Shown: positions 9,001-54,455 of the stretch, one piece after another
Position numbering within the stretch: the first letter of the stretch is position 1
How the letters are laid out: each line of letters starts with the position of its first letter
NCBI RefSeq assembly: GCF_003334315.1
Contig: NZ_QOWR01000004.1
Length of the DNA: 64,000 nt
From: Escherichia coli
Lineage (GTDB): Bacteria; Pseudomonadota; Gammaproteobacteria; Enterobacterales; Enterobacteriaceae
Strand: one strand, 5' to 3'
The notes under the pieces: generated by a model
The model's database searches: none
The model's input: only the letters and a program-made list of their open reading frames with translations
What the model was told of the DNA's origin: nothing
Translations under genes and position numbers: made by a program

Positions 9001-9007
9001 CAACTAT

Positions 9008-9040: not shown

Positions 9041-9063
9041 ATGAATTACACAATGCAAGAGGG

Positions 9064-9823: not shown

Positions 9824-10588
9824 ATGCGTTCGATTGCCAGACGTACCGCAGTGGGAGCTGCACTATTGCTTGTCATGCCAGTAGCCGTATGGATTTCTGG
9901 CTGGCGTTGGCAACCTGGAGAACAAAGTTGGCTACTAAAAGCGGCTTTTTGGGTTACTGAAACTGTCACCCAGCCCTGGGGCGTCATTACACATTTGATT
10001 TTATTCGGCTGGTTTCTCTGGTGTCTGCGTTTTCGCATTAAGGCTGCCTTTGTATTATTTGCCATTCTGGCGGCCGCAATCCTTGTGGGACAAGGCGTTA
10101 AATCCTGGATCAAAGACAAAGTCCAGGAACCACGACCTTTTGTTATCTGGCTGGAAAAAACACATCATATTCCGGTTGATGAGTTCTACACTTTAAAGCG
10201 AGCAGAACGCGGAAATCTAGTGAAAGAACAGTTGGCTGAAGAGAAAAATATCCCACAATATTTGCGTTCACACTGGCAGAAAGAGACGGGGTTTGCCTTT
10301 CCTTCCGGTCACACGATGTTTGCTGCCAGTTGGGCACTGCTGGCCGTTGGTTTGCTGTGGCCGCGTCGGCGAACGTTAACCATTGCTATCTTGCTGGTCT
10401 GGGCAACGGGAGTCATGGGAAGCCGCCTGCTGCTCGGGATGCATTGGCCACGCGATCTGGTAGTAGCTACGTTGATTTCGTGGGCGCTGGTGGCGGTGGC
10501 AACGTGGCTTGCGCAACGAATTTGTGGGCCATTAACACCACCTGCGGAAGAAAATCGCGAAATAGCGCAACGAGAACAAGAAAGTTAA
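9824..10588 (+). CDS. pgpB: Phosphatidylglycerophosphatase B (254 aa, PAP2 family)
   Basis: ORF track; multi-TM protein, PSGH motif of PAP2 phosphatases. Confidence 0.9.
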   Translation: MRSIARRTAVGAALLLVMPVAVWISGWRWQPGEQSWLLKAAFWVTETVTQPWGVITHLILFGWFLWCLRFRIKAAFVLFAILAAAILVGQGVKSWIKDKVQEPRPFVIWLEKTHHIPVDEFYTLKRAERGNLVKEQLAEEKNIPQYLRSHWQKETGFAFPSGHTMFAASWALLAVGLLWPRRRTLTIAILLVWATGVMGSRLLLGMHWPRDLVVATLISWALVAVATWLAQRICGPLTPPAEENREIAQREQES

Positions 10589-10736
10589 CGCTGGTTGATT
10601 TTCCGAATTTAGCCCTTAAATCATCAACAATGCGTGTGGATGCCATTTCGCAGACGGCGCGAAAATGGTACTTTAAAGGGCTATTGCGGTAAGTTGACCA
10701 TAATTTATTCGCTCTAACCACATAACGGGAAGTAAT

Positions 10737-11045
10737 GTGAAATATTTACTCATTTTCTTACTGGTGTTAGCGATCTTCGTGATTTCGGTCACGTTGGGTG
10801 CGCAGAACGATCAACAGGTGACGTTTAATTATCTGTTAGCGCAAGGGGAGTACCGTATTTCCACATTGCTGGCGGTATTGTTTGCTGCGGGGTTTGCTAT
10901 CGGTTGGTTGATTTGTGGCCTGTTCTGGCTGCGAGTTCGTGTTTCCCTGGCGCGCGCTGAACGTAAAATAAAGCGACTGGAAAACCAGCTTTCACCCGCG
11001 ACTGACGTGGCTGTAGTGCCGCACTCGTCAGCGGCGAAGGAATAA
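10737..11045 (+). CDS. lapA: LPS assembly protein LapA (YciS), 102 aa
   Basis: ORF track; small 2-TM protein immediately upstream of lapB. Confidence 0.85.
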   Translation: MKYLLIFLLVLAIFVISVTLGAQNDQQVTFNYLLAQGEYRISTLLAVLFAAGFAIGWLICGLFWLRVRVSLARAERKIKRLENQLSPATDVAVVPHSSAAKE

Positions 11046-11051
11046 CTTTCT

Positions 11052-12221
11052 ATGCTGGAGTTGTTGTTTCTGCTTTTGCCTGTAGCCGCTGCCTATGGCT
11101 GGTATATGGGCCGCAGAAGTGCGCAACAAAACAAGCAAGATGAAGCCAACCGCTTGTCGCGTGATTACGTAGCGGGGGTTAACTTCCTGCTTAGTAATCA
11201 ACAGGATAAAGCGGTAGACCTGTTTCTCGATATGCTTAAAGAGGATACAGGCACCGTTGAAGCCCACCTTACGCTCGGAAACCTGTTCCGTTCGCGTGGC
11301 GAAGTTGATCGCGCTATTCGCATCCATCAGACCCTAATGGAAAGCGCCTCGCTGACCTATGAACAGCGTCTGTTGGCGATTCAACAACTGGGGCGTGATT
11401 ACATGGCCGCCGGGTTATATGACCGCGCGGAAGACATGTTCAATCAGCTGACCGATGAAACTGACTTCCGCATTGGCGCGCTGCAACAGTTGCTACAAAT
11501 CTACCAGGCTACCAGTGAGTGGCAGAAAGCAATTGATGTTGCCGAACGCCTGGTGAAGCTGGGTAAAGATAAACAGCGCGTCGAAATTGCCCATTTCTAC
11601 TGTGAGTTAGCCCTGCAGCACATGGCCAGCGACGATCTCGATCGTGCCATGACCTTGCTAAAAAAAGGGGCGGCGGCAGATAAAAACAGCGCCCGCGTAT
11701 CCATAATGATGGGACGCGTGTTTATGGCGAAAGGAGAATACGCCAAAGCCGTCGAAAGTCTGCAACGCGTGATATCCCAGGACAGAGAACTGGTCAGCGA
11801 AACGCTGGAAATGTTGCAAACCTGCTATCAGCAGTTGGGTAAAACTGCCGAATGGGCAGAATTCCTGCAGCGTGCGGTGGAAGAGAACACCGGTGCCGAT
11901 GCTGAATTGATGCTTGCTGATATCATCGAAGCACGCGACGGTAGTGAGGCCGCACAGGTCTATATTACGCGCCAGCTTCAGCGTCATCCGACCATGCGTG
12001 TGTTCCATAAGTTAATGGATTACCACTTAAATGAAGCGGAAGAAGGGCGTGCCAAAGAGAGCCTGATGGTGCTGCGTGACATGGTTGGCGAGAAGGTACG
12101 TAGTAAGCCTCGTTATCGTTGCCAGAAATGTGGTTTTACCGCATACACCCTCTACTGGCATTGTCCGTCTTGTCGGGCCTGGTCAACCATTAAACCGATT
12201 CGCGGTCTTGATGGCCTGTAA
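11052..12221 (+). CDS. lapB: LPS assembly protein LapB (YciM), TPR repeats plus C-terminal rubredoxin-like Cys motif (389 aa)
   Basis: ORF track; C-terminal CQKCGF...CPSC motif; length 389. Confidence 0.9.
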   Translation: MLELLFLLLPVAAAYGWYMGRRSAQQNKQDEANRLSRDYVAGVNFLLSNQQDKAVDLFLDMLKEDTGTVEAHLTLGNLFRSRGEVDRAIRIHQTLMESASLTYEQRLLAIQQLGRDYMAAGLYDRAEDMFNQLTDETDFRIGALQQLLQIYQATSEWQKAIDVAERLVKLGKDKQRVEIAHFYCELALQHMASDDLDRAMTLLKKGAAADKNSARVSIMMGRVFMAKGEYAKAVESLQRVISQDRELVSETLEMLQTCYQQLGKTAEWAEFLQRAVEENTGADAELMLADIIEARDGSEAAQVYITRQLQRHPTMRVFHKLMDYHLNEAEEGRAKESLMVLRDMVGEKVRSKPRYRCQKCGFTAYTLYWHCPSCRAWSTIKPIRGLDGL

Positions 12222-12414
12222 TTTTTAAAAAAAATCCGACTTTAGTTACAACATACTAATTATTAATGTTCCATTGTGCTCCGGCAACGACGGCGCAGAA
12301 AAAGCCTGCCAGGGGAGAAATCGCAACTGTTAATTTTTTATTTCCACGGGTAGAATGCTCGCCGTTTACCTGTTTCGCGCCACTTCCGGTGCCCATCATC
12401 AAGAAGGTCTGGTC

Positions 12415-13152
12415 ATGACGTTAACTGCTTCATCTTCTTCCCGCGCTGTTACGAATTCTCCTGTGGTTGTTGCCCTTGATTATCATAATCGTGATGACGC
12501 GCTGGCCTTTGTCGACAAGATCGACCCACGCGATTGTCGTCTGAAGGTCGGCAAAGAGATGTTTACATTGTTTGGGCCACAGTTTGTGCGCGAACTTCAA
12601 CAGCGTGGTTTTGATATCTTTCTTGACCTGAAATTCCACGATATCCCCAACACTGCAGCGCACGCTGTCGCTGCTGCAGCTGACTTAGGCGTGTGGATGG
12701 TGAATGTTCATGCCTCTGGTGGGGCGCGTATGATGACCGCAGCGCGTGAGGCACTGGTTCCGTTTGGCAAAGATGCACCGCTTTTGATTGCTGTGACAGT
12801 GTTGACCAGCATGGAAGCCAGCGACCTGGTCGATCTTGGCATGACACTGTCACCTGCAGATTATGCAGAACGTCTGGCGGCACTGACGCAAAAATGTGGC
12901 CTTGATGGTGTGGTGTGTTCTGCTCAGGAAGCTGTGCGCTTTAAACAGGTATTCGGTCAGGAGTTCAAACTGGTTACGCCGGGCATTCGTCCGCAGGGGA
13001 GTGAAGCTGGTGACCAGCGCCGCATTATGACGCCAGAACAGGCGTTGTCGGCTGGTGTTGATTATATGGTGATTGGTCGCCCGGTAACGCAATCGGTAGA
13101 TCCAGCGCAGACGCTGAAAGCGATCAACGCCTCTTTACAGCGGAGTGCATGA
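12415..13152 (+). CDS. pyrF: Orotidine-5'-phosphate decarboxylase (245 aa)
   Basis: ORF track 12355..13152; start moved to internal ATG ([12 protein letters not shown]). Confidence 0.92.
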
Positions 13153-25010: not shown

Positions 25011-25962
25011 ACCATTCCTTATGTTTCAGAGGGTTAGCCATGGCACCCAAAATATCAGAAATCACGTTAACAATAATGACCAGTGAGCCACACACCATCA
25101 CTCCGGCGGAAATGGCTGCGTAATCCTGCTGGCGGATGGCGTTAATTAACCAGCGCCCTAAACCCGGCCAGCTAAAAACCATTTCGGTGATCATCGCCAG
25201 CGTCAGCATGGTGGAAAACTGTAAGCCCAGGCGAGGAATAACCGGCGGTAACGCGTTATGCAGAACGTGGCGACGCAAAATAGTAAAGCGCGACAAACCG
25301 CGGGTCGCCGCCGCTTTTACATAGTTCTGGTCATACACTTCGATAGTGCTGATACGCATCAGGCGGATCACTTCAGTTGTTGGCGCAACCGACAGGGTGA
25401 TCACGGGCAATATCATATGGCGGATTGCGCTCATGATCATTTCATCCCGCCATGGTGAGTCCGAAAGCCAGGCATCAATCAACGCAAAACCGGTAATCGG
25501 TTTCACTTCGTAGAGCAGATCGAAACGCCCTGAAACGGGCAACCAACCTAGCGTGAGTGAACAAAACAGCGTCAACAGAAGCGCCAGCCAGAACACCGGG
25601 ATTGAAAAGCCCAGTAAGGCGATGGCGTTGATCAAGTTATCCTGCCACTTATGGCGCGTAATCCCGGCAATCATCCCCACGGGGATGCCAACAATCAGCG
25701 CAAAACCGAAGGCGAGGATGCACAGTTCCATCGTCGCCGGGAAGACCTCTTTTAACTGTTCGGCAATCGGTTGACCGTTAATGCTGGAAACACCAAAATC
25801 CCAGTGGATCAGGCCGTTAAACCAGAACACCCAGGCATTCCACAGTGACGCGCCTTGTAACGGCGCATGAGGGGTGAAATAGCTCAAGCTGAAGCCAACG
25901 AAGGTCAGCAGGAACAAGGTGACAATCAATAACAAAATGCGGCGTAAGGTGAAGATAATCAT
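24997..25962 (-). CDS. sapB: ABC transporter permease SapB (321 aa)
   Basis: ORF track; polytopic permease overlapping sapC/sapA. Confidence 0.9.
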
Positions 25963-29981: not shown

Positions 29982-31401
29982 TTACGCGTTTTTCAACATC
30001 CACTCAATTTCTGTTTCTGTGATGAGGCGCTCAAACTGCAACAGCTCATCATTTTTACAGGCGTGATAGACATGGCAGAAGCGTTCGCCTAAATAGCGGC
30101 GCAGGTGATCATTCTCGATAAACTCACCCAGGGCATCGCTCTGGCGAATCGGAAAGGGTAAGCCTTCCTGTTCCAGCCCGTTGCCTTCGACTTCTTCCTG
30201 CAACGGCAGCTCGTTATCAAGGCCATGCAAAATACCGGCAAAAATCGCTGCCATCACCAGATATGGGGTGGCATCGGCACCCGCCACGCGATATTCCACG
30301 CGGTGATTATGACGGTCGCCGCACGGAATACGCAGGGCGACGGTGCGGTTGTTATGGCCCCACGACGCCTGCGTCGGCACATACATTCCCGGCTGGAAGC
30401 GGCGATACGAGTTCACGTTTGGTGCCAGCAACGCCATCGACGACGGCATCAGGTCAATCATCCCGGCGAGCATCTTTTTCAGCAGCGGCGAATCTTCGCC
30501 TTCCGCGTCAGAAAGCACGTTCTCGCCACGATTATTTTGCATACTGATATGGATATGCATTCCGCTGCCCGCGTGCTCTTCATACGGCTTCGCCATAAAA
30601 GTGGCGTGCATCTTATGCCTTTTCTGCCATCAGACGCACCAGGCGTTTTAGTGCCAGCGCATCATCGCAGGCTTCCAGCACGTTATCAGTATGGTAAAGG
30701 TTGATTTCAAACTGACCCGGCGAGGCCTCAGCGACCGCGCCATCTGCCGGAATCAGCTGTAACTGCGCCAGTTCATCAATATCATTGAGCACGTCGGCGA
30801 AGTGGTTGAGGTTATCAACGGAGTAAACCTGGCTTTGTGTATTGCGGTCATCGGTGCCAGGCGCGCAGGGCGGTTGCAGATACCCTTCAGCGTCGCGCTG
30901 GCGATCCAGTAAATAGAACTCCAGCTCTACCGCTACGACCGGGAACAATCCGCGCTGGCGCAGCTGCTGCCACAGGCGGTTAAGAACGTTCCGCGGCTCA
31001 ACGTCAAAGGGAGCGCCATCTTCATCGACCATGGTCAGGAGCATCTGACCGATAAACTCTGGATCGGCGGCAGAAGGAGTTAAGGAACCGAGAACAGGAA
31101 CACAGGTACGATCCGGCTCGCCCATTTCCTGACCCAGACCTGCTTCTTCTACTACGTTGCCCAGAATATCCATTGCAAATACCGAGGCCGGGAAATAACA
31201 CCCTTTCTCGAGCTTCTTCAGGCTTGAAACAGGAATACGCTTTCCACGGAAGCAACCATTTAAATCGGTAAGTAAAACATCAACATATTGCGTATTCGGG
31301 TAGCGCTCCAGGTAGCGTTTCACTTCCTGCGTAAAGGCGCTACCCCGCCTCTCTTCTGACTGCTGAACAAAGTTCTCTACTTCAACGATATTGGTTTCCA
31401 T
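29982..31401 (-). pseudogene. puuA: Gamma-glutamylputrescine synthetase PuuA (glutamine synthetase family), disrupted by a +1 frameshift near 30612-30619
   Basis: ORF track splits the gene into 30613..31479 (N-terminal, ends ...RLMAEKA*) and 29982..30611 (starts MHATFMAKPYEEHAGSGMHIH) in different frames; removing one G restores a 472-aa product. Confidence 0.8.
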
Positions 31402-40496: not shown

Positions 40497-40510
40497 AAGA
40501 ATTCACCATG

Positions 40511-40538
40511 AGCGGCGCTTATGCGCCGTTTTTTTTTC
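40511..40538 (+). terminator. Intrinsic terminator after pspE
   Basis: Read from sequence: gagcggcgcttatgcgccg followed by a run of 9 T; approximate coordinates. Confidence 0.7.
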
Positions 40539-40708
40539 TGTCACACCTTATTTACATCCCCATAGATTATTTGCGTCAGCTCACAAATACGCTTTTTCCC
40601 TGGTAAAAAATGATTTCCTGCGTGACTAAAACCCTTGTGCTCAATTGACAGTTTATTTTCTGCGGAGTAGTCTCTCGTTTCATGGGACCGCTACCACGGA
40701 AAGGCAAC

Positions 40709-42388
40709 ATGAAACAGAAAATTACGGATTACCTGGACGAAATCTACGGTGGAACATTTACCGCAACTCATTTACAGAAACTTGTAACGCGTCTTGAGAG
40801 TGCGAAACGATTAATTACACAGCGACGTAAAAAACACTGGGATGAAAGTGATGTCGTGTTAATTACCTATGCCGATCAATTTCACAGCAATGATTTAAAA
40901 CCATTACCCACATTTAATCAGTTTTACCATCAATGGCTGCAAAGCATTTTTTCACATGTTCATTTGTTGCCGTTTTATCCATGGTCATCTGATGATGGCT
41001 TTTCGGTAATTGATTATCATCAGGTCGCCAGTGAAGCGGGGGAGTGGCAGGATATTCAGTAACTCGGTGAATGCAGTCATTTAATGTTTGATTTTGTCTG
41101 CAACCATATGTCGGCAAAAAGTGAATGGTTTAAAAACTATTTACAACAGCATCCAGGTTTTGAAGATTTTTTTATTGCCGTTGACCCGCAAACCGATCTC
41201 AGCGCCGTCACTCGCCCGCGTGCGTTACCGTTATTAACGCCATTCCAGATGCGCGATCATTCAACGCGCCATTTATGGACCACCTTTAGTGACGATCAAA
41301 TTGACCTGAATTACCGTAGCCCTGAAGTGTTGCTGGCGATGGTGGATGTTTTACTCTGTTACCTTGCGAAAGGTGCTGAGTATGTCCGCCTGGATGCCGT
41401 TGGCTTTATGTGGAAAGAGCCGGGAACAAGCTGCATCCATCTGGAAAAAACACATCTGATTATCAAACTGTTACGGTCGATTATTGATAACGTTGCGCCA
41501 GGTACAGTGATCATTACCGAGACCAATGTTCCGCATAAAGACAACATTGCTTACTTTGGCGCAGGCGATGACGAAGCACATATGGTGTACCAGTTCTCGC
41601 TGCCGCCACTGGTGCTGCATGCGGTGCAAAAACAGAACGTTGAGGCGCTTTGTGCGTGGGCGCAAAACCTGACACTACCTTCCAGCAACACCACCTGGTT
41701 TAACTTCCTCGCCTCTCACGATGGCATCGGGCTAAACCCGCTACGGGGCTTGTTGCCTGAAAGCGAAATATTAGAGCTGGTCGAGGCGTTACAGCAGGAA
41801 GGTGCATTAGTAAACTGGAAAAATAATCCCGACGGTACACGCAGTCCGTATGAAATAAATGTGACCTATATGGATGCGTTAAGCCGCCGTGAGAGTAGCG
41901 ATGAAGAACGTTGCGCCAGGTTTATCCTTGCCCATGCGATTTTGTTAAGTTTCCCCGGTGTGCCAGCGATATATATTCAAAGTATTCTTGGCTCGCGTAA
42001 TGATTACGCAGGTGTCGAAAAACTCGGATATAACCGTGCGATTAACCGTAAAAAATATCACAGTAAAGAGATAACCCGAGAACTGAACGATGAAGCTACA
42101 TTAAGGCATGCGGTATATCATGAGTTGTCGCGTTTAATTACACTTCGTCGCAGCCATAACGAGTTTCATCCGGATAATAATTTTACCATTGATACGATTA
42201 ATTCATCCGTAATGCGTATTCAAAGAAGTAACGCTGATGGTAATTGTCTGACTGGATTGTTTAATGTCAGTAAAAATATTCAGCATGTAAATATTACTAA
42301 TCTGCATGGTCGGGATCTGATTAGTGAAGTTGATATATTGGGTAATGAAATAACGCTGCGCCCCTGGCAGGTTATGTGGATTAAATAA
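40709..42388 (+). pseudogene. ycjM: GH13 sucrose-phosphorylase-like glucosylglycerate phosphorylase YcjM, interrupted by an in-frame TAA at 41060-41062
   Basis: ORF track gives two same-frame ORFs, 40682..41062 and 41084..42388 (offset 402 nt); 117 aa + stop codon + 7 aa + 434 aa reproduces the expected 559 codons. Confidence 0.8.
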
Positions 42389-42401: not shown

Positions 42402-43694
42402 ATGATTAAATCAAAAATCGTGCTGTTATCAGCACTGGTTTCATGCGCCCTGATTTCAGGCTGTAAAGAAGAAAATAAAACGAATGTATCCATCGAATTT
42501 ATGCATTCTTCGGTGGAGCAGGAGCGCCAGGCCGTTATCAGTAAATTGATTGCCCGTTTTGAAAAAGAAAACCCTGGCATCACCGTTAAGCAAGTGCCCG
42601 TGGAAGAAGATGCCTATAACACTAAAGTCATTACTCTTTCACGTAGCGGTTCGCTGCCGGAAGTGATCGAAACCAGCCATGACTACGCCAAAGTGATGGA
42701 CAAAGAGCAGCTTATCGATCGCAAAGCGGTTGCCACAGTCATCAGCAACGTTGGTGAAGGCGCGTTTTACGATGGCGTACTGCGTATTGTGCGTACCGAA
42801 GATGGTAGCGCATGGACCGGTGTTCCTGTCAGCGCCTGGATTGGCGGTATCTGGTATCGCAAAGATGTGCTGGCAAAAGCGGGGCTTGAGGAGCCGAAAA
42901 ACTGGCAACAGCTGCTGGACGTTGCACAGAAACTGAATGACCCGGCGAATAAAAAATACGGCATTGCGCTGCCTACAGCAGAAAGCGTGTTGACGGAACA
43001 ATCCTTCTCCCAGTTTGCGTTATCCAACCAGGCTAACGTCTTTAACGCCGAAGGCAAAATCACCCTTGATACACCAGAGATGATGCAGGCACTGACCTAT
43101 TACCGCGACCTTGCTGCCAACACTATGCCGGGTTCTAACGACATCATGGAAGTGAAAGACGCCTTTATGAACGGCACCGCGCCGATGGCGATTTACTCCA
43201 CCTATATCCTTCCGGCTGTGATTAAAGAAGGCGACCCGAAAAACGTCGGTTTCGTGGTGCCAACCGAGAAAAACTCTGCGGTCTACGGCATGTTGACCTC
43301 GCTGACCATTACCGCCGGGCAAAAGACCGAAGAGACGGAAGCAGCAGAAAAATTTGTCACCTTTATGGAGCAGGCAGACAACATTGCCGACTGGGTGATG
43401 ATGTCGCCAGGTGCTGCGCTGCCGGTGAATAAAGCGGTGGTGACTACCGCCACCTGGAAAGACAACGACGTTATTAAGGCGCTGGGTGAACTACCGAATC
43501 AGCTAATCGGTGAACTGCCAAATATTCAGGTTTTTGGCGCAGTAGGGGATAAAAACTTTACCCGCATGGGTGATGTGACGGGTTCTGGCGTGGTGAGTTC
43601 AATGGTGCATAACGTCACCGTGGGTAAAGCCGATCTCTCTACTACGCTGCAAGCGAGCCAGAAAAAACTGGATGAACTGATCGAACAGCACTAA
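42402..43694 (+). CDS. ycjN: ABC transporter periplasmic sugar-binding protein YcjN (430 aa)
   Basis: ORF track; lipoprotein-type signal (LISGC). Confidence 0.85.
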   Translation: MIKSKIVLLSALVSCALISGCKEENKTNVSIEFMHSSVEQERQAVISKLIARFEKENPGITVKQVPVEEDAYNTKVITLSRSGSLPEVIETSHDYAKVMDKEQLIDRKAVATVISNVGEGAFYDGVLRIVRTEDGSAWTGVPVSAWIGGIWYRKDVLAKAGLEEPKNWQQLLDVAQKLNDPANKKYGIALPTAESVLTEQSFSQFALSNQANVFNAEGKITLDTPEMMQALTYYRDLAANTMPGSNDIMEVKDAFMNGTAPMAIYSTYILPAVIKEGDPKNVGFVVPTEKNSAVYGMLTSLTITAGQKTEETEAAEKFVTFMEQADNIADWVMMSPGAALPVNKAVVTTATWKDNDVIKALGELPNQLIGELPNIQVFGAVGDKNFTRMGDVTGSGVVSSMVHNVTVGKADLSTTLQASQKKLDELIEQH

Positions 43695-43714
43695 ACCCAG
43701 GACAGGAATCCGCA

Positions 43715-44596
43715 ATGAACAGGCTTTTTTCAGGTCGTTCCGATATGCCCTTTGCGCTGCTGCTTCTCGCGCCCAGCTTATTACTGCTGGGCGGTCTGGT
43801 GGCGTGGCCGATGGTGTCGAATATCGAAATCAGTTTTTTACGTCTGCCGCTCAATCCCAACATCGAGTCAACGTTTGTTGGGGTGAGCAACTATGTGCGT
43901 ATCCTCTCCGATCCCGGCTTCTGGCATTCGCTGTGGATGACGGTCTGGTATACCGCGCTGGTGGTGGCGGGCAGCACCGTGCTCGGGCTGGCGGTGGCGA
44001 TGTTTTTCAACCGCGAGTTCCGCCTGCGCAAAACCGCGCGTTCGCTGGTGATCCTCTCCTACGTAACGCCGTCCATTTCGCTGGTGTTCGCCTGGAAATA
44101 CATGTTCAACAACGGCTACGGCATTGTTAACTACCTCGGCGTCGATCTTCTGCATCTCTATGAGCAGGCACCGCTGTGGTTCGATAATCCGGGCAGTAGC
44201 TTTGTGCTGGTGGTGCTGTTCGCCATCTGGCGCTACTTCCCGTATGCCTTTATCTCGTTTCTGGCGATTTTGCAGACCATCGACAAATCGCTGTACGAAG
44301 CGGCAGAGATGGATGGCGCTAATGCCTGGCAACGGTTTCGTATCGTCACGCTGCCCGCAATTATGCCGGTCCTGGCGACGGTGGTGACACTGCGCACCAT
44401 CTGGATGTTCTACATGTTCGCGGATGTTTATTTGCTGACGACCAAGGTCGATATTCTCGGTGTATATCTCTACAAAACCGCCTTTGCCTTTAATGATTTA
44501 GGAAAAGCGGCGGCGATCTCGGTGGTGCTCTTCATCATTATTTTCGCTGTCATTCTGCTGACCAGGAAACGGGTGAACCTCAATGGCAACAAATAA
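43715..44596 (+). CDS. ycjO: ABC transporter permease YcjO (293 aa)
   Basis: ORF track; MalF/UgpA-like permease. Confidence 0.85.
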   Translation: MNRLFSGRSDMPFALLLLAPSLLLLGGLVAWPMVSNIEISFLRLPLNPNIESTFVGVSNYVRILSDPGFWHSLWMTVWYTALVVAGSTVLGLAVAMFFNREFRLRKTARSLVILSYVTPSISLVFAWKYMFNNGYGIVNYLGVDLLHLYEQAPLWFDNPGSSFVLVVLFAIWRYFPYAFISFLAILQTIDKSLYEAAEMDGANAWQRFRIVTLPAIMPVLATVVTLRTIWMFYMFADVYLLTTKVDILGVYLYKTAFAFNDLGKAAAISVVLFIIIFAVILLTRKRVNLNGNK

Positions 44597-45425
44597 ACGC
44601 ACACTCAGTCGCATCGGTTTTTACTGCGGGCTGGCGCTGTTTCTCATCATCACGCTGTTTCCATTTTTTGTGATGCTGATGACCTCGTTCAAGGGCGCGA
44701 AAGAGGCGATCTCACTGCATCCTACGCTGCTGCCGCAGCAGTGGACGCTGGAGCATTACGTCGACATTTTTAACCCGATGATTTTCCCGTTTGTCGACTA
44801 CTTCCGTAACAGTCTGGTGGTGTCTGTGGTTTCATCCGTGGTGGCGGTATTCCTCGGCATTCTTGGGGCTTACGCGCTTTCCCGCCTGCGCTTTAAAGGT
44901 CGGATGACCATCAACGCCAGCTTTTACACGGTGTATATGTTCTCTGGCATTTTGCTGGTGGTGCCGCTTTTCAAAATCATCACCGCGCTTGGCATTTACG
45001 ACACTGAGATGGCGCTGATCATCACCATGGTGACGCAAACTCTGCCCACCGCCGTGTTTATGCTGAAAAGCTACTTCGACACCATCCCCGATGAGATCGA
45101 AGAAGCGGCGATGATGGATGGCCTCAACCGTCTGCAAATTATCTTCCGCATCACCGTGCCGTTGGCGATGTCCGGGCTGATATCCGTGTTCGTCTACTGC
45201 TTTATGGTGGCGTGGAACGACTATCTGTTTGCGTCGATTTTCCTCTCCAGCGCCAGCAATTTCACCTTACCGGTGGGCCTGAACGCGCTGTTCAGTACGC
45301 CAGATTACATCTGGGGACAGATGATGGCGGCCTCACTGGTGACCGCATTGCCGGTGGTGATTATGTATGCGCTTTCGGAACGTTTTATTAAGAGTGGTTT
45401 GACCGCCGGTGGCGTGAAGGGCTAA
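44583..45425 (+). CDS. ycjP: ABC transporter permease YcjP (280 aa)
   Basis: ORF track; MalG-like permease. Confidence 0.85.
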   Translation: MATNKRTLSRIGFYCGLALFLIITLFPFFVMLMTSFKGAKEAISLHPTLLPQQWTLEHYVDIFNPMIFPFVDYFRNSLVVSVVSSVVAVFLGILGAYALSRLRFKGRMTINASFYTVYMFSGILLVVPLFKIITALGIYDTEMALIITMVTQTLPTAVFMLKSYFDTIPDEIEEAAMMDGLNRLQIIFRITVPLAMSGLISVFVYCFMVAWNDYLFASIFLSSASNFTLPVGLNALFSTPDYIWGQMMAASLVTALPVVIMYALSERFIKSGLTAGGVKG

Positions 45426-45455
45426 AGCGGCCAGTTTCTTTACAAGGAGTTTTAA

Positions 45456-46508
45456 ATGAAAAAGTTAGTAGCCACAGCACCGCGTGTTGCTGCGCTGGTT
45501 GAGTATGAAGATCGGGCGATTTTAGCTAATGAAGTGAAGATCCGCGTGCGTTTCGGCGCACCGAAACACGGAACGGAAGTGGTCGACTTCCGCGCCGCCA
45601 GCCCGTTTATTGATGAAGACTTTAACGGCGAATGGCAGATGTTCACTCCGCGTCCGGCAGATGCGCCGCGCGGCATTGAGTTTGGCAAATTCCAGCTTGG
45701 CAACATGGTGGTTGGCGACATTATCGAGTGCGGCAGCGACGTTACCGACTACGCGGTGGGCGACAGCGTATGCGGCTACGGCCCGCTCTCCGAGACGGTC
45801 ATCATTAACGCAGTGAATAACTACAAGCTGCGCAAAATGCCGCAAGGCAGCTCCTGGAAAAACGCCGTCTGCTACGACCCGGCGCAGTTTGCCATGAGCG
45901 GCGTGCGCGATGCCAACGTGCGCGTAGGGGATTTTGTGGTGGTGGTAGGGCTTGGCGCAATCGGTCAAATTGCCATCCAACTGGCTAAACGCGCTGGCGC
46001 TTCTGTGGTGATTGGCGTCGATCCTATCGCCCATCGCTGTGATATTGCCCGTCGCCACGGCGCGGATTTCTGCCTTAACCCCATCGGCACTGATGTAGGT
46101 AAAGAGATCAAAACGCTGACCGGCAAGCAGGGTGCCGATGTGATTATCGAAACCAGCGGCTACGCCGACGCGCTGCAATCGGCGCTCCGCGGTCTGGCTT
46201 ATGGCGGCACCATCTCCTATGTCGCGTTTGCCAAGCCGTTTGCCGAAGGTTTTAACCTCGGACGCGAAGCGCATTTCAATAACGCCAAAATTGTCTTCTC
46301 TCGCGCGTGCAGCGAACCGAACCCGGATTATCCGCGCTGGAGCCGCAAGCGTATTGAAGAAACCTGTTGGGAACTGCTGATGAACGGTTATCTCAATTGC
46401 GAAGATTTAATCGACCCGGTGGTGACCTTTGCCAATAGCCCGGAAAGCTATATGCAGTATGTCGACCAGCATCCGGAACAGAGCATCAAAATGGGCGTTA
46501 CGTTTTAA
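45456..46508 (+). CDS. ycjQ: Zinc-type alcohol dehydrogenase-like sugar dehydrogenase YcjQ (350 aa)
   Basis: ORF track; MDR family with GLGAIG Rossmann motif. Confidence 0.85.
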   Translation: MKKLVATAPRVAALVEYEDRAILANEVKIRVRFGAPKHGTEVVDFRAASPFIDEDFNGEWQMFTPRPADAPRGIEFGKFQLGNMVVGDIIECGSDVTDYAVGDSVCGYGPLSETVIINAVNNYKLRKMPQGSSWKNAVCYDPAQFAMSGVRDANVRVGDFVVVVGLGAIGQIAIQLAKRAGASVVIGVDPIAHRCDIARRHGADFCLNPIGTDVGKEIKTLTGKQGADVIIETSGYADALQSALRGLAYGGTISYVAFAKPFAEGFNLGREAHFNNAKIVFSRACSEPNPDYPRWSRKRIEETCWELLMNGYLNCEDLIDPVVTFANSPESYMQYVDQHPEQSIKMGVTF

Positions 46509-46526
46509 TTCAAAGGAATGAAAAAA

Positions 46527-47315
46527 ATGAAAATCGGCACACAGAATCAGGCGTTCTTTCCGGAAAACATTCTGGAGAAATTTCGTTATATCAAAGAGAT
46601 GGGCTTCGATGGTTTTGAGATTGACGGCAAACTGCTGGTTAACAACATCGAAGAAGTCAAAGCGGCGATCAAAGAAACCGGTTTACCGGTGACCACCGCC
46701 TGCGGTGGCTATGACGGATGGATTGGCGACTTTATCGAAGAGCGTCGTCTTAATGGCTTAAAGCAGATCGAGCGCATTCTCGAAGCGCTGGCAGAAGTGG
46801 GCGGTAAAGGCATCGTCGTTCCGGCTGCGTGGGGCATGTTTACCTTCCGCTTACCGCCGATGACCTCGCCGCGTAGCCTGGACGGCGACCGCAAAATGGT
46901 GAGTGATTCCCTGCGCGTACTGGAACAGGTCGCCGCGCGTACCGGAACCGTGGTGTATCTCGAACCGTTAAACCGCTATCAGGATCATATGATCAACACC
47001 CTCGCCGATGCCCGCCGTTACATCGTCGAAAACGATCTTAAACATGTACAGATTATCGGCGATTTCTATCACATGAATATCGAAGAAGATAACCTGGCGC
47101 AGGCGCTGCATGACAACCGCGACCTGCTCGGTCATGTGCATATTGCGGATAACCATCGCTACCAGCCGGGCAGCGGCACCCTGGATTTCCACGCGCTGTT
47201 TGAACAGCTGCGCGCGGATAACTATCAGGGCTATGTAGTGTACGAAGGGCGTATCCGGGCGGAAGATCCTGCCCAGGCGTACCGTGATTCGTTGGCCTGG
47301 TTGCGTACCTGCTAA
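46527..47315 (+). CDS. ycjR: Sugar phosphate isomerase/epimerase (xylose-isomerase-like TIM barrel) YcjR, 262 aa
   Basis: ORF track 46518..47315; start moved to MKIGTQNQAF. Confidence 0.85.
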   Translation: MKIGTQNQAFFPENILEKFRYIKEMGFDGFEIDGKLLVNNIEEVKAAIKETGLPVTTACGGYDGWIGDFIEERRLNGLKQIERILEALAEVGGKGIVVPAAWGMFTFRLPPMTSPRSLDGDRKMVSDSLRVLEQVAARTGTVVYLEPLNRYQDHMINTLADARRYIVENDLKHVQIIGDFYHMNIEEDNLAQALHDNRDLLGHVHIADNHRYQPGSGTLDFHALFEQLRADNYQGYVVYEGRIRAEDPAQAYRDSLAWLRTC

Positions 47316-47324
47316 GAGGTCTTT

Positions 47325-48380
47325 GTGAAAAGTGCAATGACAAGCTCTCCGCTGCGGGTCGCGATAATAGGCGCAGGCCAGGTGGCGGATAAGGTTCATG
47401 CTTCGTACTACTGCACCCGCAACGATCTGGAACTGGTGGCTGTCTGTGACAGCCGCCTTTCCCAGGCGCAGGCGCTGGCAGAAAAATACGGGAATGCATC
47501 CGTGTGGGACGATCCGCAGGCCATGCTGCTGGCGGTGAAACCTGATGTGGTTAGCGTCTGCTCACCTAACCGTTTTCATTACGAACATACCCTGATGGCA
47601 CTGGAAGCGGGCTGCCATGTGATGTGCGAAAAACCGCCCGCCATGACGCCAGAACAGGCGCGGGAAATGTGCGATACCGCGCGCAAACTGGGCAAGGTGC
47701 TGGCCTACGACTTTCACCATCGTTTTGCGCTCGATACGCAACAGCTGCGTGAACAGGTGACCAACGGCGTTTTGGGAGAGATTTACGTTACCACCGCCCG
47801 CGCCCTGCGTCGCTGCGGCGTTCCCGGCTGGGGTGTCTTTACCAATAAAGAACTGCAGGGTGGTGGCCCGCTGATCGACATCGGCATTCATATGCTGGAT
47901 GCTGCGATGTATGTGCTGGGCTTTCCGGCGGTGAAAAGCGTGAATGCGCATAGCTTTCAAAAGATCGGCACGCAAAAGAGCTGTGGTCAATTTGGTGAGT
48001 GGGATCCGGCAACTTACAGCGTCGAAGATTCGCTGTTTGGCACCATTGAATTTCATAACGGCGGCATTCTGTGGCTGGAAACGTCATTTGCACTCAACAT
48101 CCGCGAACAGTCGATTATGAACGTCAGCTTTTGTGGTGATAAAGCTGGTGCGACGCTGTTTCCAGCACATATCTACACCGATAACAACGGTGAATTAATG
48201 ACGCTGATGCAACGGGAAATGGCAGACGACAACCGCCATTTGCGCAGCATGGAAGCCTTTATCAATCACGTACAGGGCAAGCCCGTGATGATAGCCGACG
48301 CCGAGCAGGGGTACATCATCCAGCAACTGGTGGCGGCGTTGTATCAATCCGCAGAAACAGGGACGCGTGTGGAATTATGA
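47325..48380 (+). CDS. ycjS: Gfo/Idh/MocA-family NAD-dependent oxidoreductase YcjS (351 aa)
   Basis: ORF track; N-terminal VAIIGAGQVA Rossmann motif. Confidence 0.85.
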   Translation: MKSAMTSSPLRVAIIGAGQVADKVHASYYCTRNDLELVAVCDSRLSQAQALAEKYGNASVWDDPQAMLLAVKPDVVSVCSPNRFHYEHTLMALEAGCHVMCEKPPAMTPEQAREMCDTARKLGKVLAYDFHHRFALDTQQLREQVTNGVLGEIYVTTARALRRCGVPGWGVFTNKELQGGGPLIDIGIHMLDAAMYVLGFPAVKSVNAHSFQKIGTQKSCGQFGEWDPATYSVEDSLFGTIEFHNGGILWLETSFALNIREQSIMNVSFCGDKAGATLFPAHIYTDNNGELMTLMQREMADDNRHLRSMEAFINHVQGKPVMIADAEQGYIIQQLVAALYQSAETGTRVEL

Positions 48381-50644
48381 CCAGGCCAGTAACGTTATCA
48401 GAACCCCATTTCAGCCAGCATACCCTGAACAAGTATGCATCGCTGATGGCGCAGGGGAACGGCTATCTTGGGCTTCGCGCCAGCCATGAAGAAGATTACA
48501 CGCGCCAGACGCGAGGGATGTATCTGGCGGGGCTGTATCATCGGGCGGGAAAAGGTGAAATCAACGAACTGGTGAACCTGCCTGATGTCGTGGGGATGGA
48601 GATTGCCATAAATGGTGAGGTTTTCTCGTTATCCCACGAAGCCTGGCAGCGTGAGCTTGACTTTGCCAGTGGCGAATTACGCCGCAATGTTGTCTGGCGT
48701 ACCAGCAACGGCTCAGGTTACACCATCGCCAGCCGTCGCTTTGTTTCGGCAGACCAACTGCCGCTCATTGCGCTGGAAATCACTATTACGCCACTGGACG
48801 CCGACGCGTCAGTGCTGATTTCAACAGGCATTGACGCCACGCAAACCAATCACGGTCGCCAACATCTCGACGAAACCCAGGTGCGGGTGTTTGGTCAGCA
48901 TCTGATGCAGGGGAGCTACACCACCCAGGATGGACGCAGTGATGTGGCCATCAGCTGTTGCTGTAAGGTGAGCGGTGATGTGCAGCAATGCTATACCGCC
49001 AAAGAGCGCCGTTTACTGCAACATACCAGTGCGCAGCTTCATGCAGGCGAGACAATGACGTTGCAAAAACTGGTGTGGATCGACTGGCGGGATGACAGGC
49101 AAGCTGCTTTAGACGAGTGGGGCAGCGCGTCGCTTCGCCAGCTTGAAATGTGCGCGCAGCAGAGTTACGACCAACTTCTTGCAGCATCAACAGAAAACTG
49201 GCGTCAATGGTGGCAGAAACGTCGTATCACGGTAAATGGCGGCGAAGCGCACGATCAGCAAGCGTTAGATTATGCGCTTTATCATCTGCGCATCATGACG
49301 CCTGCCCACGACGAGCGCAGCAGCATTGCGGCAAAAGGCTTAACCGGCGAAGGCTACAAAGGCCACGTTTTCTGGGATACAGAAGTATTTTTGTTACCGT
49401 TTCATCTGTTTAGCGATCCGACGGTTGCCCGAAGTTTACTGCGTTATCGCTGGCACAACTTGCCAGGCGCGCAGGAGAAAGCGCGACGCAACGGCTGGCA
49501 GGGCGCGCTATTTCCGTGGGAAAGCGCGCGCAGCGGCGAAGAAGAGACGCCGGAATTTGCCGCCATTAACATTCGCACCGGGCTGCGGCAAAAAGTGGCC
49601 TCGGCGCAGGCGGAACATCATCTGGTGGCCGATATCGCCTGGGCGGTTATTCAATACTGGCAGACCACGGGGGATGAAAGTTTCATTGCGCATGAAGGCA
49701 TGGCGCTACTTCTGGAGACGGCAAAGTTCTGGATTAGCCGCGCGGTGAGAGTTAACGATCGTCTGGAAATTCATGATGTTATTGGGCCAGACGAATATAC
49801 CGAACATGTCAATAATAATGCATACACCAGCTATATGGCCCGCTACAACGTTCAACAGGCGCTGAATATTGCCCGCCAGTTCGGCTGTAGCGACGATGCG
49901 TTTATCCATCGCGCCGAAATGTTCCTCAAAGAGCTATGGATGCCAGAAATTCAGCCCGACGGCGTTTTGCCGCAGGATGATTCGTTTATGGCTAAGCCGG
50001 CGATTAATCTGGCGAAATACAAAGCGGCGGCGGGGAAGCAAACCATACTGCTGGATTATTCACGCGCAGAAGTGAACGAGATGCAGATCCTCAAACAAGC
50101 TGATGTGGTGATGCTCAATTACATGCTGCCGGAGCAGTTCTCAGCGGCATCGTGTCTTGCCAATCTGCAATTTTATGAACCGCGCACTATTCACGACTCG
50201 TCATTAAGTAAAGCAATCCACGGCATTGTTGCCGCACGCTGTGGCCTGCTGACCCAAAGTTATCAGTTCTGGCGCGAGGGGACTGAAATCGATCTTGGTG
50301 CTGATCCGCATAGTTGTGATGATGGTATCCATGCTGCCGCAACTGGCGCTATCTGGCTGGGGGCGATTCAGGGTTTTGCCGGGGTGAGCGTGCGTGACGG
50401 TGAATTGCATCTCAATCCGGCGTTACCTGAGCAGTGGCAACAGTTGTCTTTCCCTCTGTTCTGGCAGGGCTGCGAATTACAGGTCACTCTTGACGCGCAG
50501 CGTATTGCGATTCGAACTTCTGCGCCCGTTTCACTGCGTTTGAACGGTCAGCTTATAACCGTGGCTGAAGAATCTGTTTTCTGTTTGGGTGATTTTATTT
50601 TGCCCTTCAATGGGACCGCTACCAAACATCAGGAGGATGAATGA
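48377..50644 (+). CDS. ycjT: GH65 kojibiose phosphorylase YcjT (755 aa)
   Basis: ORF track; GH65 family, overlaps ycjS/ycjU by 4 nt. Confidence 0.88.
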
Positions 50645-51300
50645 AACTGCAAGGGGTAATTTTCGATCTGGATGGTGTAATCACCGATACCGCGCATCTG
50701 CATTTCCAGGCGTGGCAGCAGATTGCCGCTGAAATTGGCATCAGCATTGATGCGCAGTTTAACGAATCCCTAAAAGGGATCAGCCGCGATGAGTCTCTGC
50801 GGCGCATTCTGCAACACGGGGGCAAAGAGGGCGACTTTAACTCGCAGGAGAGGGCGCAACTGGCGTATCGCAAAAATCTGCTCTATGTCCACTCACTACG
50901 CGAGTTGACGGTCAACGCTGTTCTACCCGGCATTCGCTCTTTGCTGGCAGATCTCCGTGCACAGCAGATCTCGGTTGGGCTGGCTTCTGTCTCCCTGAAT
51001 GCGCCGACGATTTTAGCGGCGCTGGAGCTGCGCGAGTTTTTCACCTTCTGCGCGGATGCTTCCCAACTTAAAAACTCGAAACCGGACCCGGAAATCTTTC
51101 TCGCCGCCTGTGCAGGGCTGGGCGTGCCGCCGCAGGCATGTATCGGCATTGAAGATGCGCAGGCGGGCATTGACGCCATTAACGCCAGCGGTATGCGCTC
51201 GGTGGGGATCGGCGCGGGCTTAACCGGGGCGCAATTACTGTTGCCTTCAACGGAATCACTCACCTGGCCGCGGTTATCGGCCTTCTGGCAAAACGTATAG
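50641..51300 (+). CDS. ycjU: Beta-phosphoglucomutase YcjU (HAD superfamily), 219 aa
   Basis: ORF track; HAD motif [10 protein letters not shown]. Confidence 0.9.
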
Positions 51301-51313
51301 CAAAGGAATCAAC

Positions 51314-52396
51314 ATGGCTCAGCTTTCGTTACAACATATTCAAAAAATCTACGATAACCAGGTGCATGTGGTGAAGGACTTCAACCTGGAAATTGCCGAT
51401 AAAGAGTTCATCGTGTTTGTCGGCCCGTCGGGCTGCGGTAAGTCGACCACCCTGCGCATGATTGCCGGGCTTGAGGAGATCAGCGGCGGCGATCTGTTGA
51501 TCGACGGCAAACGAATGAATGACGTTCCAGCCAAAGCACGCAATATAGCGATGGTGTTCCAGAACTACGCGTTGTATCCGCATATGACGGTTTACGACAA
51601 CATGGCGTTTGGTCTGAAGATGCAAAAAATCGCCAAAGAGGTGATTGATGAGCGGGTGAACTGGGCGGCGCAAATTCTCGGCCTGCGTGAGTACCTGAAA
51701 CGTAAGCCGGGGGCGCTTTCCGGCGGGCAACGTCAGCGAGTGGCGCTTGGGCGGGCGATTGTACGCGAAGCGGGCGTGTTTTTAATGGATGAACCGCTCT
51801 CTAACCTTGATGCCAAGCTGCGCGTGCAAATGCGCGCAGAGATCAGCAAGCTGCATCAGAAACTGAACACCACCATGATCTACGTGACCCACGATCAGAC
51901 CGAAGCGATGACCATGGCGACGCGGATTGTGATTATGAAAGACGGGATTGTTCAGCAAGTAGGTGCGCCGAAAACCGTTTATAACCAACCCGCGAATATG
52001 TTTGTTTCCGGATTTATTGGATCACCAGCGATGAATTTTATTCGCGGCACGATCGATGGCGATAAATTCGTTACGGAAACGCTTAAATTAACCATTCCCG
52101 AAGAGAAATTAGCGGTTCTGAAAACACAGGAAAGTTTGCATAAGCCCATCGTGATGGGAATACGACCGGAAGATATTCATCCGGACGCGCAAGAGGAAAA
52201 TAACATTTCCGCCAAAATTAGCGTGGCAGAATTAACCGGTGCGGAATTTATGCTCTACACCACGGTTGGGGGGCACGAGTTAGTGGTCCGTGCTGGTGCG
52301 TTAAATGATTATCATGCAGGAGAAAATATCACTATTCATTTTGATATGACGAAATGTCATTTCTTTGATGCAGAAACGGAAATAGCAATTCGCTAA
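51314..52396 (+). CDS. ycjV: MalK-like ABC transporter ATP-binding protein YcjV, intact 360 aa
   Basis: ORF track; Walker A GPSGCGKST, signature LSGGQRQRV. Confidence 0.88.
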   Translation: MAQLSLQHIQKIYDNQVHVVKDFNLEIADKEFIVFVGPSGCGKSTTLRMIAGLEEISGGDLLIDGKRMNDVPAKARNIAMVFQNYALYPHMTVYDNMAFGLKMQKIAKEVIDERVNWAAQILGLREYLKRKPGALSGGQRQRVALGRAIVREAGVFLMDEPLSNLDAKLRVQMRAEISKLHQKLNTTMIYVTHDQTEAMTMATRIVIMKDGIVQQVGAPKTVYNQPANMFVSGFIGSPAMNFIRGTIDGDKFVTETLKLTIPEEKLAVLKTQESLHKPIVMGIRPEDIHPDAQEENNISAKISVAELTGAEFMLYTTVGGHELVVRAGALNDYHAGENITIHFDMTKCHFFDAETEIAIR

Positions 52397-52440
52397 ATAC
52401 AGGGGGAAGGCATTCCCCCAGGATAATACAAGGAACAATA

Positions 52441-53346
52441 ATGAAAAAGTTATTACCCTGTACCGCACTGGTGATGTGTGCGGGAATGGCCTGCGCACAG
52501 GCCGAGGAAAGGAACGACTGGCACTTTAATATCGGCGCGATGTACGAAATAGAAAACGTCGAGGGTTATGGCGAAGATATGGATGGGCTGGCGGAGCCTT
52601 CAGTCTATTTTAATGCCGCCAACGGGCCGTGGAGAATTGCTCTGGCCTATTATCAGGAAGGGCCGGTAGATTATAGCGCGGGTAAACGTGGAACGTGGTT
52701 TGATCGCCCGGAGCTGGAGGTGCATTATCAGTTCCTCGAAAACGATGATTTCAGTTTCGGCCTGACCGGCGGTTTCCGTAATTATGGTTATCACTACGTT
52801 GATGAACCGGGTAAAGACACGGCGAATATGCAGCGCTGGAAAATCGCGCCAGACTGGGATGTGAAACTGACTGACGATTTACGTTTCAACGGTTGGTTGT
52901 CGATGTATAAATTTGCCAACGATCTGAACACTACCGGTTACGCTGATACCCGTGTCGAAACGGAAACAGGTCTGCAATATACCTTCAACGAAACGGTTGC
53001 CTTGCGAGTGAACTATTATCTCGAGCGCGGCTTCAATATGGACGACAGCCGCAATAACGGTGAGTTTTCCACGCAAGAAATTCGCGCCTATTTGCCGCTG
53101 ACGCTCGGCAACCACTCGGTGACGCCGTATACGCGCATTGGGCTGGATCGCTGGAGTAACTGGGACTGGCAGGATGATATTGAACGTGAAGGCCATGATT
53201 TTAACCGTGTAGGTTTATTTTACGGTTATGATTTCCAGAACGGACTTTCCGTTTCGCTGGAATACGCGTTTGAGTGGCAGGATCACGACGAAGGCGACAG
53301 TGATAAATTCCATTATGCAGGTGTCGGCGTAAATTACTCGTTCTGA
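52441..53346 (+). CDS. ompG: Outer membrane porin OmpG (301 aa)
   Basis: ORF track; signal peptide, beta-barrel with C-terminal aromatic residue. Confidence 0.92.
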   Translation: MKKLLPCTALVMCAGMACAQAEERNDWHFNIGAMYEIENVEGYGEDMDGLAEPSVYFNAANGPWRIALAYYQEGPVDYSAGKRGTWFDRPELEVHYQFLENDDFSFGLTGGFRNYGYHYVDEPGKDTANMQRWKIAPDWDVKLTDDLRFNGWLSMYKFANDLNTTGYADTRVETETGLQYTFNETVALRVNYYLERGFNMDDSRNNGEFSTQEIRAYLPLTLGNHSVTPYTRIGLDRWSNWDWQDDIEREGHDFNRVGLFYGYDFQNGLSVSLEYAFEWQDHDEGDSDKFHYAGVGVNYSF

Positions 53347-53456: not shown

Positions 53457-54455
53457 TTATTTCAGCGTCATATGCGTGGCAACGGTAATATTCTGTGGTG
53501 ACGGTTTTCCAGAAATTAAGCGGAATAATAACTCGCAGCTTTGTTGACCTAACTCCTGCGTCGGAACATCGATGCCGCCCGGTGCAGGCGTTAAAATAAA
53601 TGACAGCGTTTCATTGCTATAACCCACCACCGCTAACTGCTGCGGAATAGCAATATTTTTCTCTGCTGCCGCACGATAAATGCTCATTAATTTCAGGCTG
53701 TCAGTGGCAAACACCGCCTCAGGCAACGGTGACTGGCTTAATAATTGCCGTGCTGCTTTTAATGCAGTTTCATGGGTATAACCGCCATCAACAATCCATT
53801 CATCACGCACTGCAATATTATGCGCAGCCAGGCTCTGCTTATAACCATTAACGCGATCAACCGAAACATGGACATCAAGCGGAGCATGCAGGCAGGCAAT
53901 ATTTTGATGCCCACTTTCAATTAATGCATCGGTCAACGCAATGCTGTCGCCAAAATTATCGGTATCGACAGAATAAACATGGGCATATTGACCTTCAACT
54001 TTGCCAATCACCACCACCGGAATATCATATTTATCGAGTTGGGCAAAAAATGACTCATCCGCTGGCGAACTGAGCATAATAATGCCTTTAATCATTTTCT
54101 GCTTAATTTTGCTTTCGCATTTTTGCAGATCTTCTGCCGGATTGTGCGACGTTTGTAATATCACGTCGAAACCTTCTTCTTCAGCTTTGGCGGTGATGGC
54201 ATGCAAAACTTCAGAGAAAAACGGATTACCCGCCGTAGTTTTGGTCGAACGGGTAGAAATCACCATAATGGCATCAAAACCCGAAGAGGTCAGCGCGCGG
54301 GCCAGCTTGTTTGGCTGATACTGTAATTCTTCAATGGCCCGTAACACTTTTTCGCGCGCTTCCGGGGAGATATTAGTTTGCTTATTCAGCACGCGTGATA
54401 CGGTGGATTTTGATACGCCTGCAACCCTGGCAATATCATAAATAGTAGGGGACAT
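53457..54455 (-). CDS. ycjW: LacI-family transcriptional regulator YcjW (332 aa)
   Basis: ORF track; N-terminal HTH ([24 protein letters not shown]). Confidence 0.9.

Follow-up and report, generated by a model that had tools for sequence, protein, structure and literature searches.

Classical polar nonsense mutations of E. coli operons, such as those of lac, trp and gal, act through Rho-dependent termination. In E. coli K-12, ycjM is the first gene of a predicted sugar operon, ycjMNOPQRSTUV-ompG, and under standard laboratory conditions the cluster is repressed by YcjW, which has one binding site immediately before the ycjM start codon and a second between ycjT and ycjU, the operator being 14 bp in length (PMC6599011). 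The E. coli YcjM protein is a strict 2-O-glucosylglycerate phosphorylase (PMC7178133) and belongs to GH13 subfamily 18 (GH13_18). Within this subfamily, the roles of active-site residues have been described for the B. adolescentis sucrose phosphorylase (BaSP; structures 1R7A and 2GDU), where Asp50 binds the glucosyl OH4 and Phe53 forms a platform (PMC7178133). ycjM has also been put forward as a PCR marker for enteric E. coli, as far as can be told from the way in which the proposal (Deng et al. 2014) is cited in PMC11995477 and PMC13118800.

We analysed a stretch of 64,000 nucleotides of E. coli DNA (the window), which is colinear with positions 1,329,508-1,393,053 of the K-12 chromosome at 99.77% identity. 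ycjM lies at 40709-42388 on the + strand and, read from the K-12 start at 40709, spans 1,680 nt, equivalent to 559 codons plus the stop. In a pairwise comparison with the K-12 MG1655 gene (b1309, NP_415825.4), it occupies the same locus, with the same neighbours from pspE through ycjW, and has the same length, with no indel; 1,678 of the 1,680 nucleotides are identical. The first of the two differences is a C to T change at 41060, which converts CAA in K-12 to TAA in the window and so places a premature, in-frame stop (Q118*) at 41060-41062 on the + strand. Upstream of it remains an N-terminal fragment of 117 codons (40709-41059, +). The ORF listing shows two ORFs in the same frame, 40682-41062 and 41084-42388, whose starts are 402 nt apart, and the translation around the stop reads ...EWQDIQ*LGECSHLMFDFVCNHMSAK...

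These results bear out an earlier note on this DNA, which had described ycjM as the first gene of the operon, split by a TAA into two same-frame ORFs, and had taken the stop for a substitution, plausibly CAA to TAA, rather than an indel. The predicted operon structure agrees with the position assigned to the gene, the pieces add up to the 559 codons of b1309, and comparison with orthologues gives CAA (Gln118) as the ancestral codon, present in K-12 and in no fewer than 4,443 complete genomes. The note had also allowed for a naturally short protein of about 117 aa followed by a separate gene. Two natural genes at this locus are ruled out: the uninterrupted 559-codon ORF is the usual form in E. 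coli.

The second difference from K-12 is a C to A change at 42222 (+ strand), which makes codon 505 CAA (Q) in the window where K-12 has CCA (P). In a codon-505 allele search of complete E. coli genomes, the Q505 allele of the window was matched by 3,213 genomes, 2,769 of them exactly. Q505 is thus the majority allele of the species, from which K-12 deviates, and this rules out P505Q as a second lesion in ycjM. As judged from these alignments, ycjM in the window is the common species allele plus one nonsense mutation.

The frequency of the stop was determined in a collection of 5,426 complete E. coli genomes, using megablast with the SNP in the middle of a 41-nt query, an arrangement in which the 28-base exact seed must always span the variable base. 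The TAA allele was found in 63 genomes (∼1%), at 100% identity and on the chromosome in every case. A few of these assemblies are duplicate deposits, recognised by the same strain name or record length, leaving ∼59 distinct isolates. The CAA allele was present in at least 4,443 of the 5,426; ycjM was detectable in 5,033 genomes, 527 of which the 41-nt allele test left unclassified. The nearest relatives of the window carry an uninterrupted 559-aa YcjM (WP_000810500.1). Since the identical TAA recurs in 63 assemblies, Q118* is not a sequencing error; it is an inherited allele.

Elsewhere, the window has changes of its own. An additional C at 30618 shifts the frame of puuA and was found in 0 of the 5,426 genomes. 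In ycjP, R246Q (at 45319) is private, being absent from every comparison genome that covers the site. A homopolymer frameshift, A8 to A7, lies at ∼63248 in pgrR, a gene that is intact in BL12 and K-12; a query for the A7 allele returned no matches from the collection, but seeding may have been prevented by low-complexity masking of the A-run. Finally, a copy of IS1A, inserted after K-12 position 1,393,053 between pgrR and mppA, begins at 63548 and runs off the end of the window. Each of these changes was missing from all comparison genomes that cover its site. They may be genuine mutations private to this genome or errors of assembly, and in contrast to the TAA they are without independent support.

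The relationship among genomes with the stop was examined over 29500-54499 of the window by comparing seven carriers (CP53, with partial coverage, BL12, 2017.17.03CC, PSS-13, HS30-1, 2018-01-1CC and HCP6S3_I2) with the closest genomes in which ycjM is intact (CFS3246, SX45, TO73 and K-12). The seven carriers have in common, besides the T at 41060, alleles at 31682 (puuD), 33988 (puuC) and 35375 and 35486 (puuB), and all except HCP6S3_I2 share that at 30268 (puuA). Because the seven carriers checked share this linked haplotype, the comparison indicates that Q118* arose once, in the ancestor of a small E. coli group that is close to K-12 in this region. When the left 20 kb of the window, which is more polymorphic, was used for matching, the 60 best-matching genomes were almost all TAA carriers. 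One exception is CP131_Sichuan, in which ycjM is intact and the ycj haplotype is another one; by that token it is a recombinant across this region.

Each carrier has between zero and nine private SNPs in the 25 kb. At commonly quoted E. coli clock rates, this suggests an age for the lineage of the order of 10^2-10^3 years, a very rough figure which assembly errors may inflate. Within ycjM, the sole further substitution in the carriers examined is the synonymous V302V in PSS-13. The sources of the carriers are varied: pigs, poultry, ducks, dogs, frogs, a pangolin, cattle, water and humans. Country of origin was looked up for five of them, and these (from China, Viet Nam, Ecuador and the UK) span three continents. 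One carrier, 14EC001, is ST793 O115:H10 (PMC6206212), and it is the only one that could be typed from the literature.

The consequence for the enzyme was considered by combining the published BaSP residue roles with an alignment of YcjM to 1R7A. In intact YcjM, the PF00128 alpha-amylase catalytic domain covers residues 83-317 (E = 1.5e-20), and homology to the solved GH13_18 phosphorylases (7QQI, 7QQJ and 1R7A/2GDU) begins at residue 47. Codon 118 aligns with BaSP Glu73. BaSP Asp50 and Phe53 correspond to YcjM Asp95 and Phe98, His88 to His133 and Arg190 to Arg227, whilst the nucleophile Asp192 and the acid/base Glu232 correspond to Asp229 and Glu271, and His289 and Asp290 to His337 and Asp338, Asp338 being the transition-state stabiliser. 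The motifs RLDAVGF, ITETN and ASHDG, which map to BaSP Asp192, Glu232 and Asp290, are all found in the window translation. YcjM conserves the catalytic triad (Asp, Glu, Asp) of BaSP and other GH13_18 enzymes, and their subsite -1 residues as well. The substrates differ, YcjM being strict for glucosylglycerate.

The stop divides this predicted active site. The predicted subsite -1 residues Asp95 and Phe98 fall in the 117-codon fragment, and His133, Asp229, Glu271 and Asp338 lie beyond the stop. A functional GH13_18 member has one uninterrupted ORF for the whole catalytic barrel; the window has none, and the in-frame stop, at codon 118 of 559, removes a large and essential part of the protein. 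As neither fragment holds a complete active site, glucosylglycerate phosphorylase activity is most likely absent in this strain.

Downstream of the stop, an in-frame ORF of 434 codons (41084-42388, +) runs from Met126, the first in-frame ATG past the stop and 21 nt from it, and is a candidate re-initiation product. It holds His133, Arg227, Asp229, Glu271, His337 and Asp338. A Shine-Dalgarno-like GGTGA at 41066-41070 (+), with a calculated anti-SD duplex energy of -7.6 kcal/mol, precedes this ATG, and it is probably weak because its spacing from the ATG, 13 nt, is long. Low-level re-initiation at Met126 is possible, and the product, which would be without the first elements of the barrel and residues 118-125, would very probably be inactive.

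Taken as a whole, the best explanation is that a single C to T transition turned Gln118 (CAA) into an ochre stop (TAA) in the ancestor of the lineage, and that its descendants have inherited the allele. Translation from the normal ycjM start ends after 117 residues, the enzyme is most likely lost, and ycjM is a young pseudogene in an operon that has decayed repeatedly in E. coli. We put the probability of this explanation at about 90%.

The competing explanations can be weighed against the same evidence. That the TAA might be an error of sequencing or assembly in one genome, with ycjM really intact, draws some support from the two single-base frameshifts in puuA and pgrR, which show that this assembly may contain errors. 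However, the same TAA was deposited by different groups in different countries, it sits on a shared, linked haplotype, and the substitution at 41060 lies in non-repetitive sequence, so that the chance of such an error is close to nil. Equally hard to credit is a full-length YcjM made by readthrough, whether through a suppressor tRNA or programmed recoding. Of the bacterial stop codons UAA is the most efficient, which counts against this, and the context, TAAC, which terminates somewhat less efficiently than TAAT, offers nothing specific in its favour. No tRNA gene that might serve as a suppressor lies in the 64-kb window. Moreover, a recoding site would be expected to be conserved, but this stop is confined to ∼1% of genomes and, in the carriers examined, to one haplotype.

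A gene that works in two pieces, with the 434-aa product of a restart at Met126 active alone or together with the 117-aa fragment, has several features in its favour: the in-frame ATG with GGTGA upstream, the retention of His133, Asp229, Glu271 and Asp338 in the C-terminal ORF, and the presence of nothing beyond a synonymous substitution in ycjM of the carriers examined. It is nonetheless highly improbable. The 13-nt spacing is unfavourable. In the alignment, residues 47-125, among them the glucosyl-binding Asp95 and Phe98, make up the initial strands and helices of the catalytic barrel, and eight residues (118-125) would be in neither fragment. IS1 or IS5 has entered ycjM in three carriers, as expected for a dead gene, and the lineage is too young for a scarcity of substitutions to signal constraint. 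It is also conceivable that loss of ycjM, or a polar damping of the cluster, was selected, for example against wasteful phosphorolysis or the cost of expression. The spread of the carriers across hosts and three continents, and the repeated hits on the cluster in E. coli, would fit this, but the carriers examined fit one mutational origin with no convergence at the site, and the allele has reached only ∼1%. Because K-12 keeps the operon repressed under standard conditions, neutral decay accounts for all the observations, and hitch-hiking with a successful clone would here be indistinguishable from selection; we regard selected loss as quite unlikely. A further proposal, that Q118* is maintained because a restart at Met126 gives a working two-fragment enzyme, or else that its polarity tunes down a costly cluster and so aids the spread of this multi-host lineage, in a gene put forward as a marker of enteric life, is very unlikely.

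The rest of the cluster is in good order. ycjN, O, P, Q, R, S, T, U and V and ompG (42402-53346, +) are all intact, and are possible targets of polarity. ycjW (53457-54455, - strand), which encodes the LacI-type repressor of the cluster (PMC6599011), is identical to that of K-12. ycjN, O, P, Q, R, S, T and U, ompG and ycjW show no more than one amino-acid difference each from K-12. ycjV is a complete ORF of 1,083 nt in the window; its K-12 counterpart is frameshifted, with G6 reduced to G5 at the position equivalent to window 52268. This agrees with the view in the earlier note that the remainder of the operon is intact.

Other genomes show further, independent damage to the cluster. Insertions of IS1A or IS5 inside ycjM are found in the carriers ECZP248, 23CRST042 and ET670. 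In the carrier PSS-13, IS1A lies in ycjV, in HS30-1 ISKpn26 lies between ompG and ycjW, and in 2018-01-1CC the 3' end of ycjW is truncated by IS1A. A separate internal stop, in ycjS, is present in CP131_Sichuan, which does not belong to the lineage. This seldom expressed cluster thus undergoes recurrent erosion in E. coli that is probably neutral.

As the first gene of the operon, ycjM could, when interrupted, also affect the genes behind it, a polarity that the earlier note had suggested and that is plausible. Release of ribosomes at codon 118 would leave up to ∼1.3 kb of ycjM mRNA untranslated; without a restart, the ribosome-free stretch from 41063 to the ycjN start is 1,339 nt, although the in-frame ATG 21 nt downstream might re-load ribosomes. 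Within this RNA, a C-rich, G-poor stretch at 41645-41750 (+; C 36-38%, G 15-19%, in 78-nt windows) is a candidate Rho-utilisation site. Of the 78-nt windows, the one beginning at 41663 ranks best (C 38%, G 15%), a value that describes composition only and is uncalibrated against known rut sites. In the part of ycjM downstream of the stop, the composition scan gave C/G of at least 1.5 in 24 of 211 windows. The composition at 41645-41750 would suit Rho loading, and Rho could then terminate transcription early, lowering the expression of ycjN-ycjT when the operon is induced. We give polarity of at least 2-fold on the downstream genes even odds at best, and perhaps slightly less. A restart at Met126 could keep ribosomes on the mRNA and blunt the effect.

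Since the operon is repressed by YcjW, any polarity would matter only on induction. The second YcjW site, ahead of ycjU, may mark a point of internal control, in which case ycjU-ompG might escape polarity from upstream. On the other side of ycjM, a hairpin and T-run resembling an intrinsic terminator follow pspE (40510-40540, +) and would separate psp transcription from ycjM; a scan with consensus promoter elements gave no hit on the + strand ahead of ycjM. An effect through lost translational coupling to ycjN was considered and is unlikely. In the predicted fold the ycjN SD is unpaired, and the ycjM-ycjN junction is without significant structure (z = -0.85), which together imply that any polarity would be transcriptional rather than a loss of coupling. 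Among the carriers, the private SNPs in ycjN-ompG are four nonsynonymous to two synonymous, and those in the flanking puu and psp genes are eight to three, so that no extra relaxation of selection downstream of the stop, and nothing to suggest that these genes have become dispensable, was detected, in a tiny sample with very little power.

The stop is already recorded in the databases. RefSeq/PGAP annotates ycjM as a pseudogene with an 'internal stop' in all seven carriers inspected, the records including EAH50_RS14560 (CP53), KYX59_RS03995 (BL12) and DKQ63_RS12385 (HS30-1). The nearest relatives have ycjM annotated as a normal CDS (WP_000810500.1), and for the remaining ycj proteins they share their accessions with most carriers.

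The importance of the finding is small beyond bookkeeping, and its uses are modest. On the basis of the sequence, the carriers would be natural ycjM-null strains from the faeces of many hosts, and such strains argue that glucosylglycerate phosphorylase is dispensable for gut carriage. A PCR assay based on ycjM would presumably give a positive result with such null strains as well. A convenient marker of the lineage is provided by the SNP at 41060 and the SNPs linked to it in puuD, puuC and puuB. The carriers and their near-identical relatives with intact ycjM (CFS3246, SX45 and TO73) form a natural pair in which to study nonsense polarity in the ycj operon.

Among known systems, the classical polar nonsense mutations of lac, trp and gal offer a comparison of how the lesion might work, and of that alone: the likeness lies in an early, promoter-proximal stop, after which a long RNA containing a C-rich, G-poor stretch would go untranslated. 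The ycj operon differs in that the restart 21 nt downstream and the second YcjW site could limit the effect. Among the closest counterparts are the PGAP pseudogene records themselves. Those of CP53 and BL12 are 100% identical to the window over a 1,851-nt query that takes in ycjM, TAA included, and that of HS30-1 has the same stop; none differs from the window at ycjM, and the genome of the window has its private changes elsewhere. The ycjM gene described here is an ordinary, lineage-specific nonsense pseudogene of the textbook kind, already annotated in RefSeq. K-12 itself provides a parallel in ycjV'/ymjB', likewise a lineage-specific, single-base lesion in the same YcjW-repressed cluster. 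There, in another lineage, a frameshift has struck an ABC-transporter ATPase gene near the end of the operon, whereas in the window a nonsense mutation has struck the first gene.

SNPs at positions 31682, 33988, 35375 and 35486, in puuD, puuC and puuB, were linked with the ycjM TAA codon in all of the carriers that we examined. A further SNP at 30268, in puuA, was also linked with the stop codon in these genomes, HCP6S3_I2 excepted. The TAA-linked changes include a T24P substitution in PuuD. None of these five puu SNPs is found in the nearest genomes with an intact ycjM, and together they provide a useful haplotype marker for the carrier lineage.

The differences between the window and K-12 are strongly clustered, with 106 of the 139 SNPs falling within the first 18 kb, 37 of these between 16000 and 18000, while between 20000 and 63500 there is only about one SNP per 2 kb. 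The SNP-rich regions extend from 1541 to 9000 (topA, cysB and acnA) and from 15250 to 19404 (pdeR and rnb). From their distribution along the sequence, these clusters look like recombination tracts, the remaining backbone being K-12-like. CP131_Sichuan (NZ_CP053720.1) carries the same haplotype as the window over positions 1–20000 and a divergent haplotype over puuA–puuB and ycjT, and this mixture indicates recombination in that strain. Its ycjM is intact and its ycjS is flagged as having an internal stop (6175–7230 of locus L014), giving this strain an independent pseudogene of its own within the ycj cluster.

Additional insertion sequences were also seen within or beside the ycj cluster of carrier genomes. 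In PSS-13, ycjV is interrupted by IS1A (21814–23673 of locus L007). In HS30-1, a copy of ISKpn26 lies between ompG and ycjW (23854–25048 of locus L008), and in 2018-01-1CC, IS1A has cut ycjW to 993 nt (24048–24745 of locus L009). Three further carriers, ECZP248, 23CRST042 and ET670, have IS1A or IS5 within ycjM itself.

Two frameshifts lie elsewhere in the window. The glutamate–putrescine ligase gene puuA (29982–31401, minus strand) has an extra C at 30618 relative to K-12 and all 11 comparison genomes. The insertion shifts the reading frame near codon 262 of the 472. When the 5,426 complete genomes were searched with a 41-nt query spanning 30618, there was no match to this allele; the extra base is a mutation private to this genome or else an assembly error. 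In pgrR (62485–63383, plus strand), the A-run at 63248–63254 contains seven residues, versus eight in K-12, which puts about 45 codons at the 3' end of the gene out of frame. The gene is intact in BL12, the closest genome, and a collection-wide query for the seven-residue allele gave no match, although low-complexity masking may have prevented matches; a miscounted homopolymer is a real possibility here. Colinearity with K-12 stops shortly afterwards, at 63546 (K-12 1,393,053), in the pgrR–mppA intergenic region. The sequence from 63548 to the window end at 64000 is IS1A sequence, all 453 nt being identical to the IS1A copy of PSS-13. Inspection of the BL12 locus revealed no insertion sequence at the matching site.

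Within the ycj cluster of the window, a G to A change at 45319 gives R246Q in YcjP (codon 246); of the 12 genomes that were compared, only that of the window has it. The ABC-transporter ATPase gene ycjV (51314–52396) is an intact 1,083-nt ORF, and it is likewise uninterrupted in every other non-K-12 genome inspected except PSS-13. The K-12 pseudogene ycjV'/ymjB' results from a deletion reducing six G residues to five, at a position equivalent to 52268. The Gln505 codon of ycjM (42222), which the window carries, was matched exactly in at least 2,769 genomes, and the Pro505 of K-12 is a minority allele.
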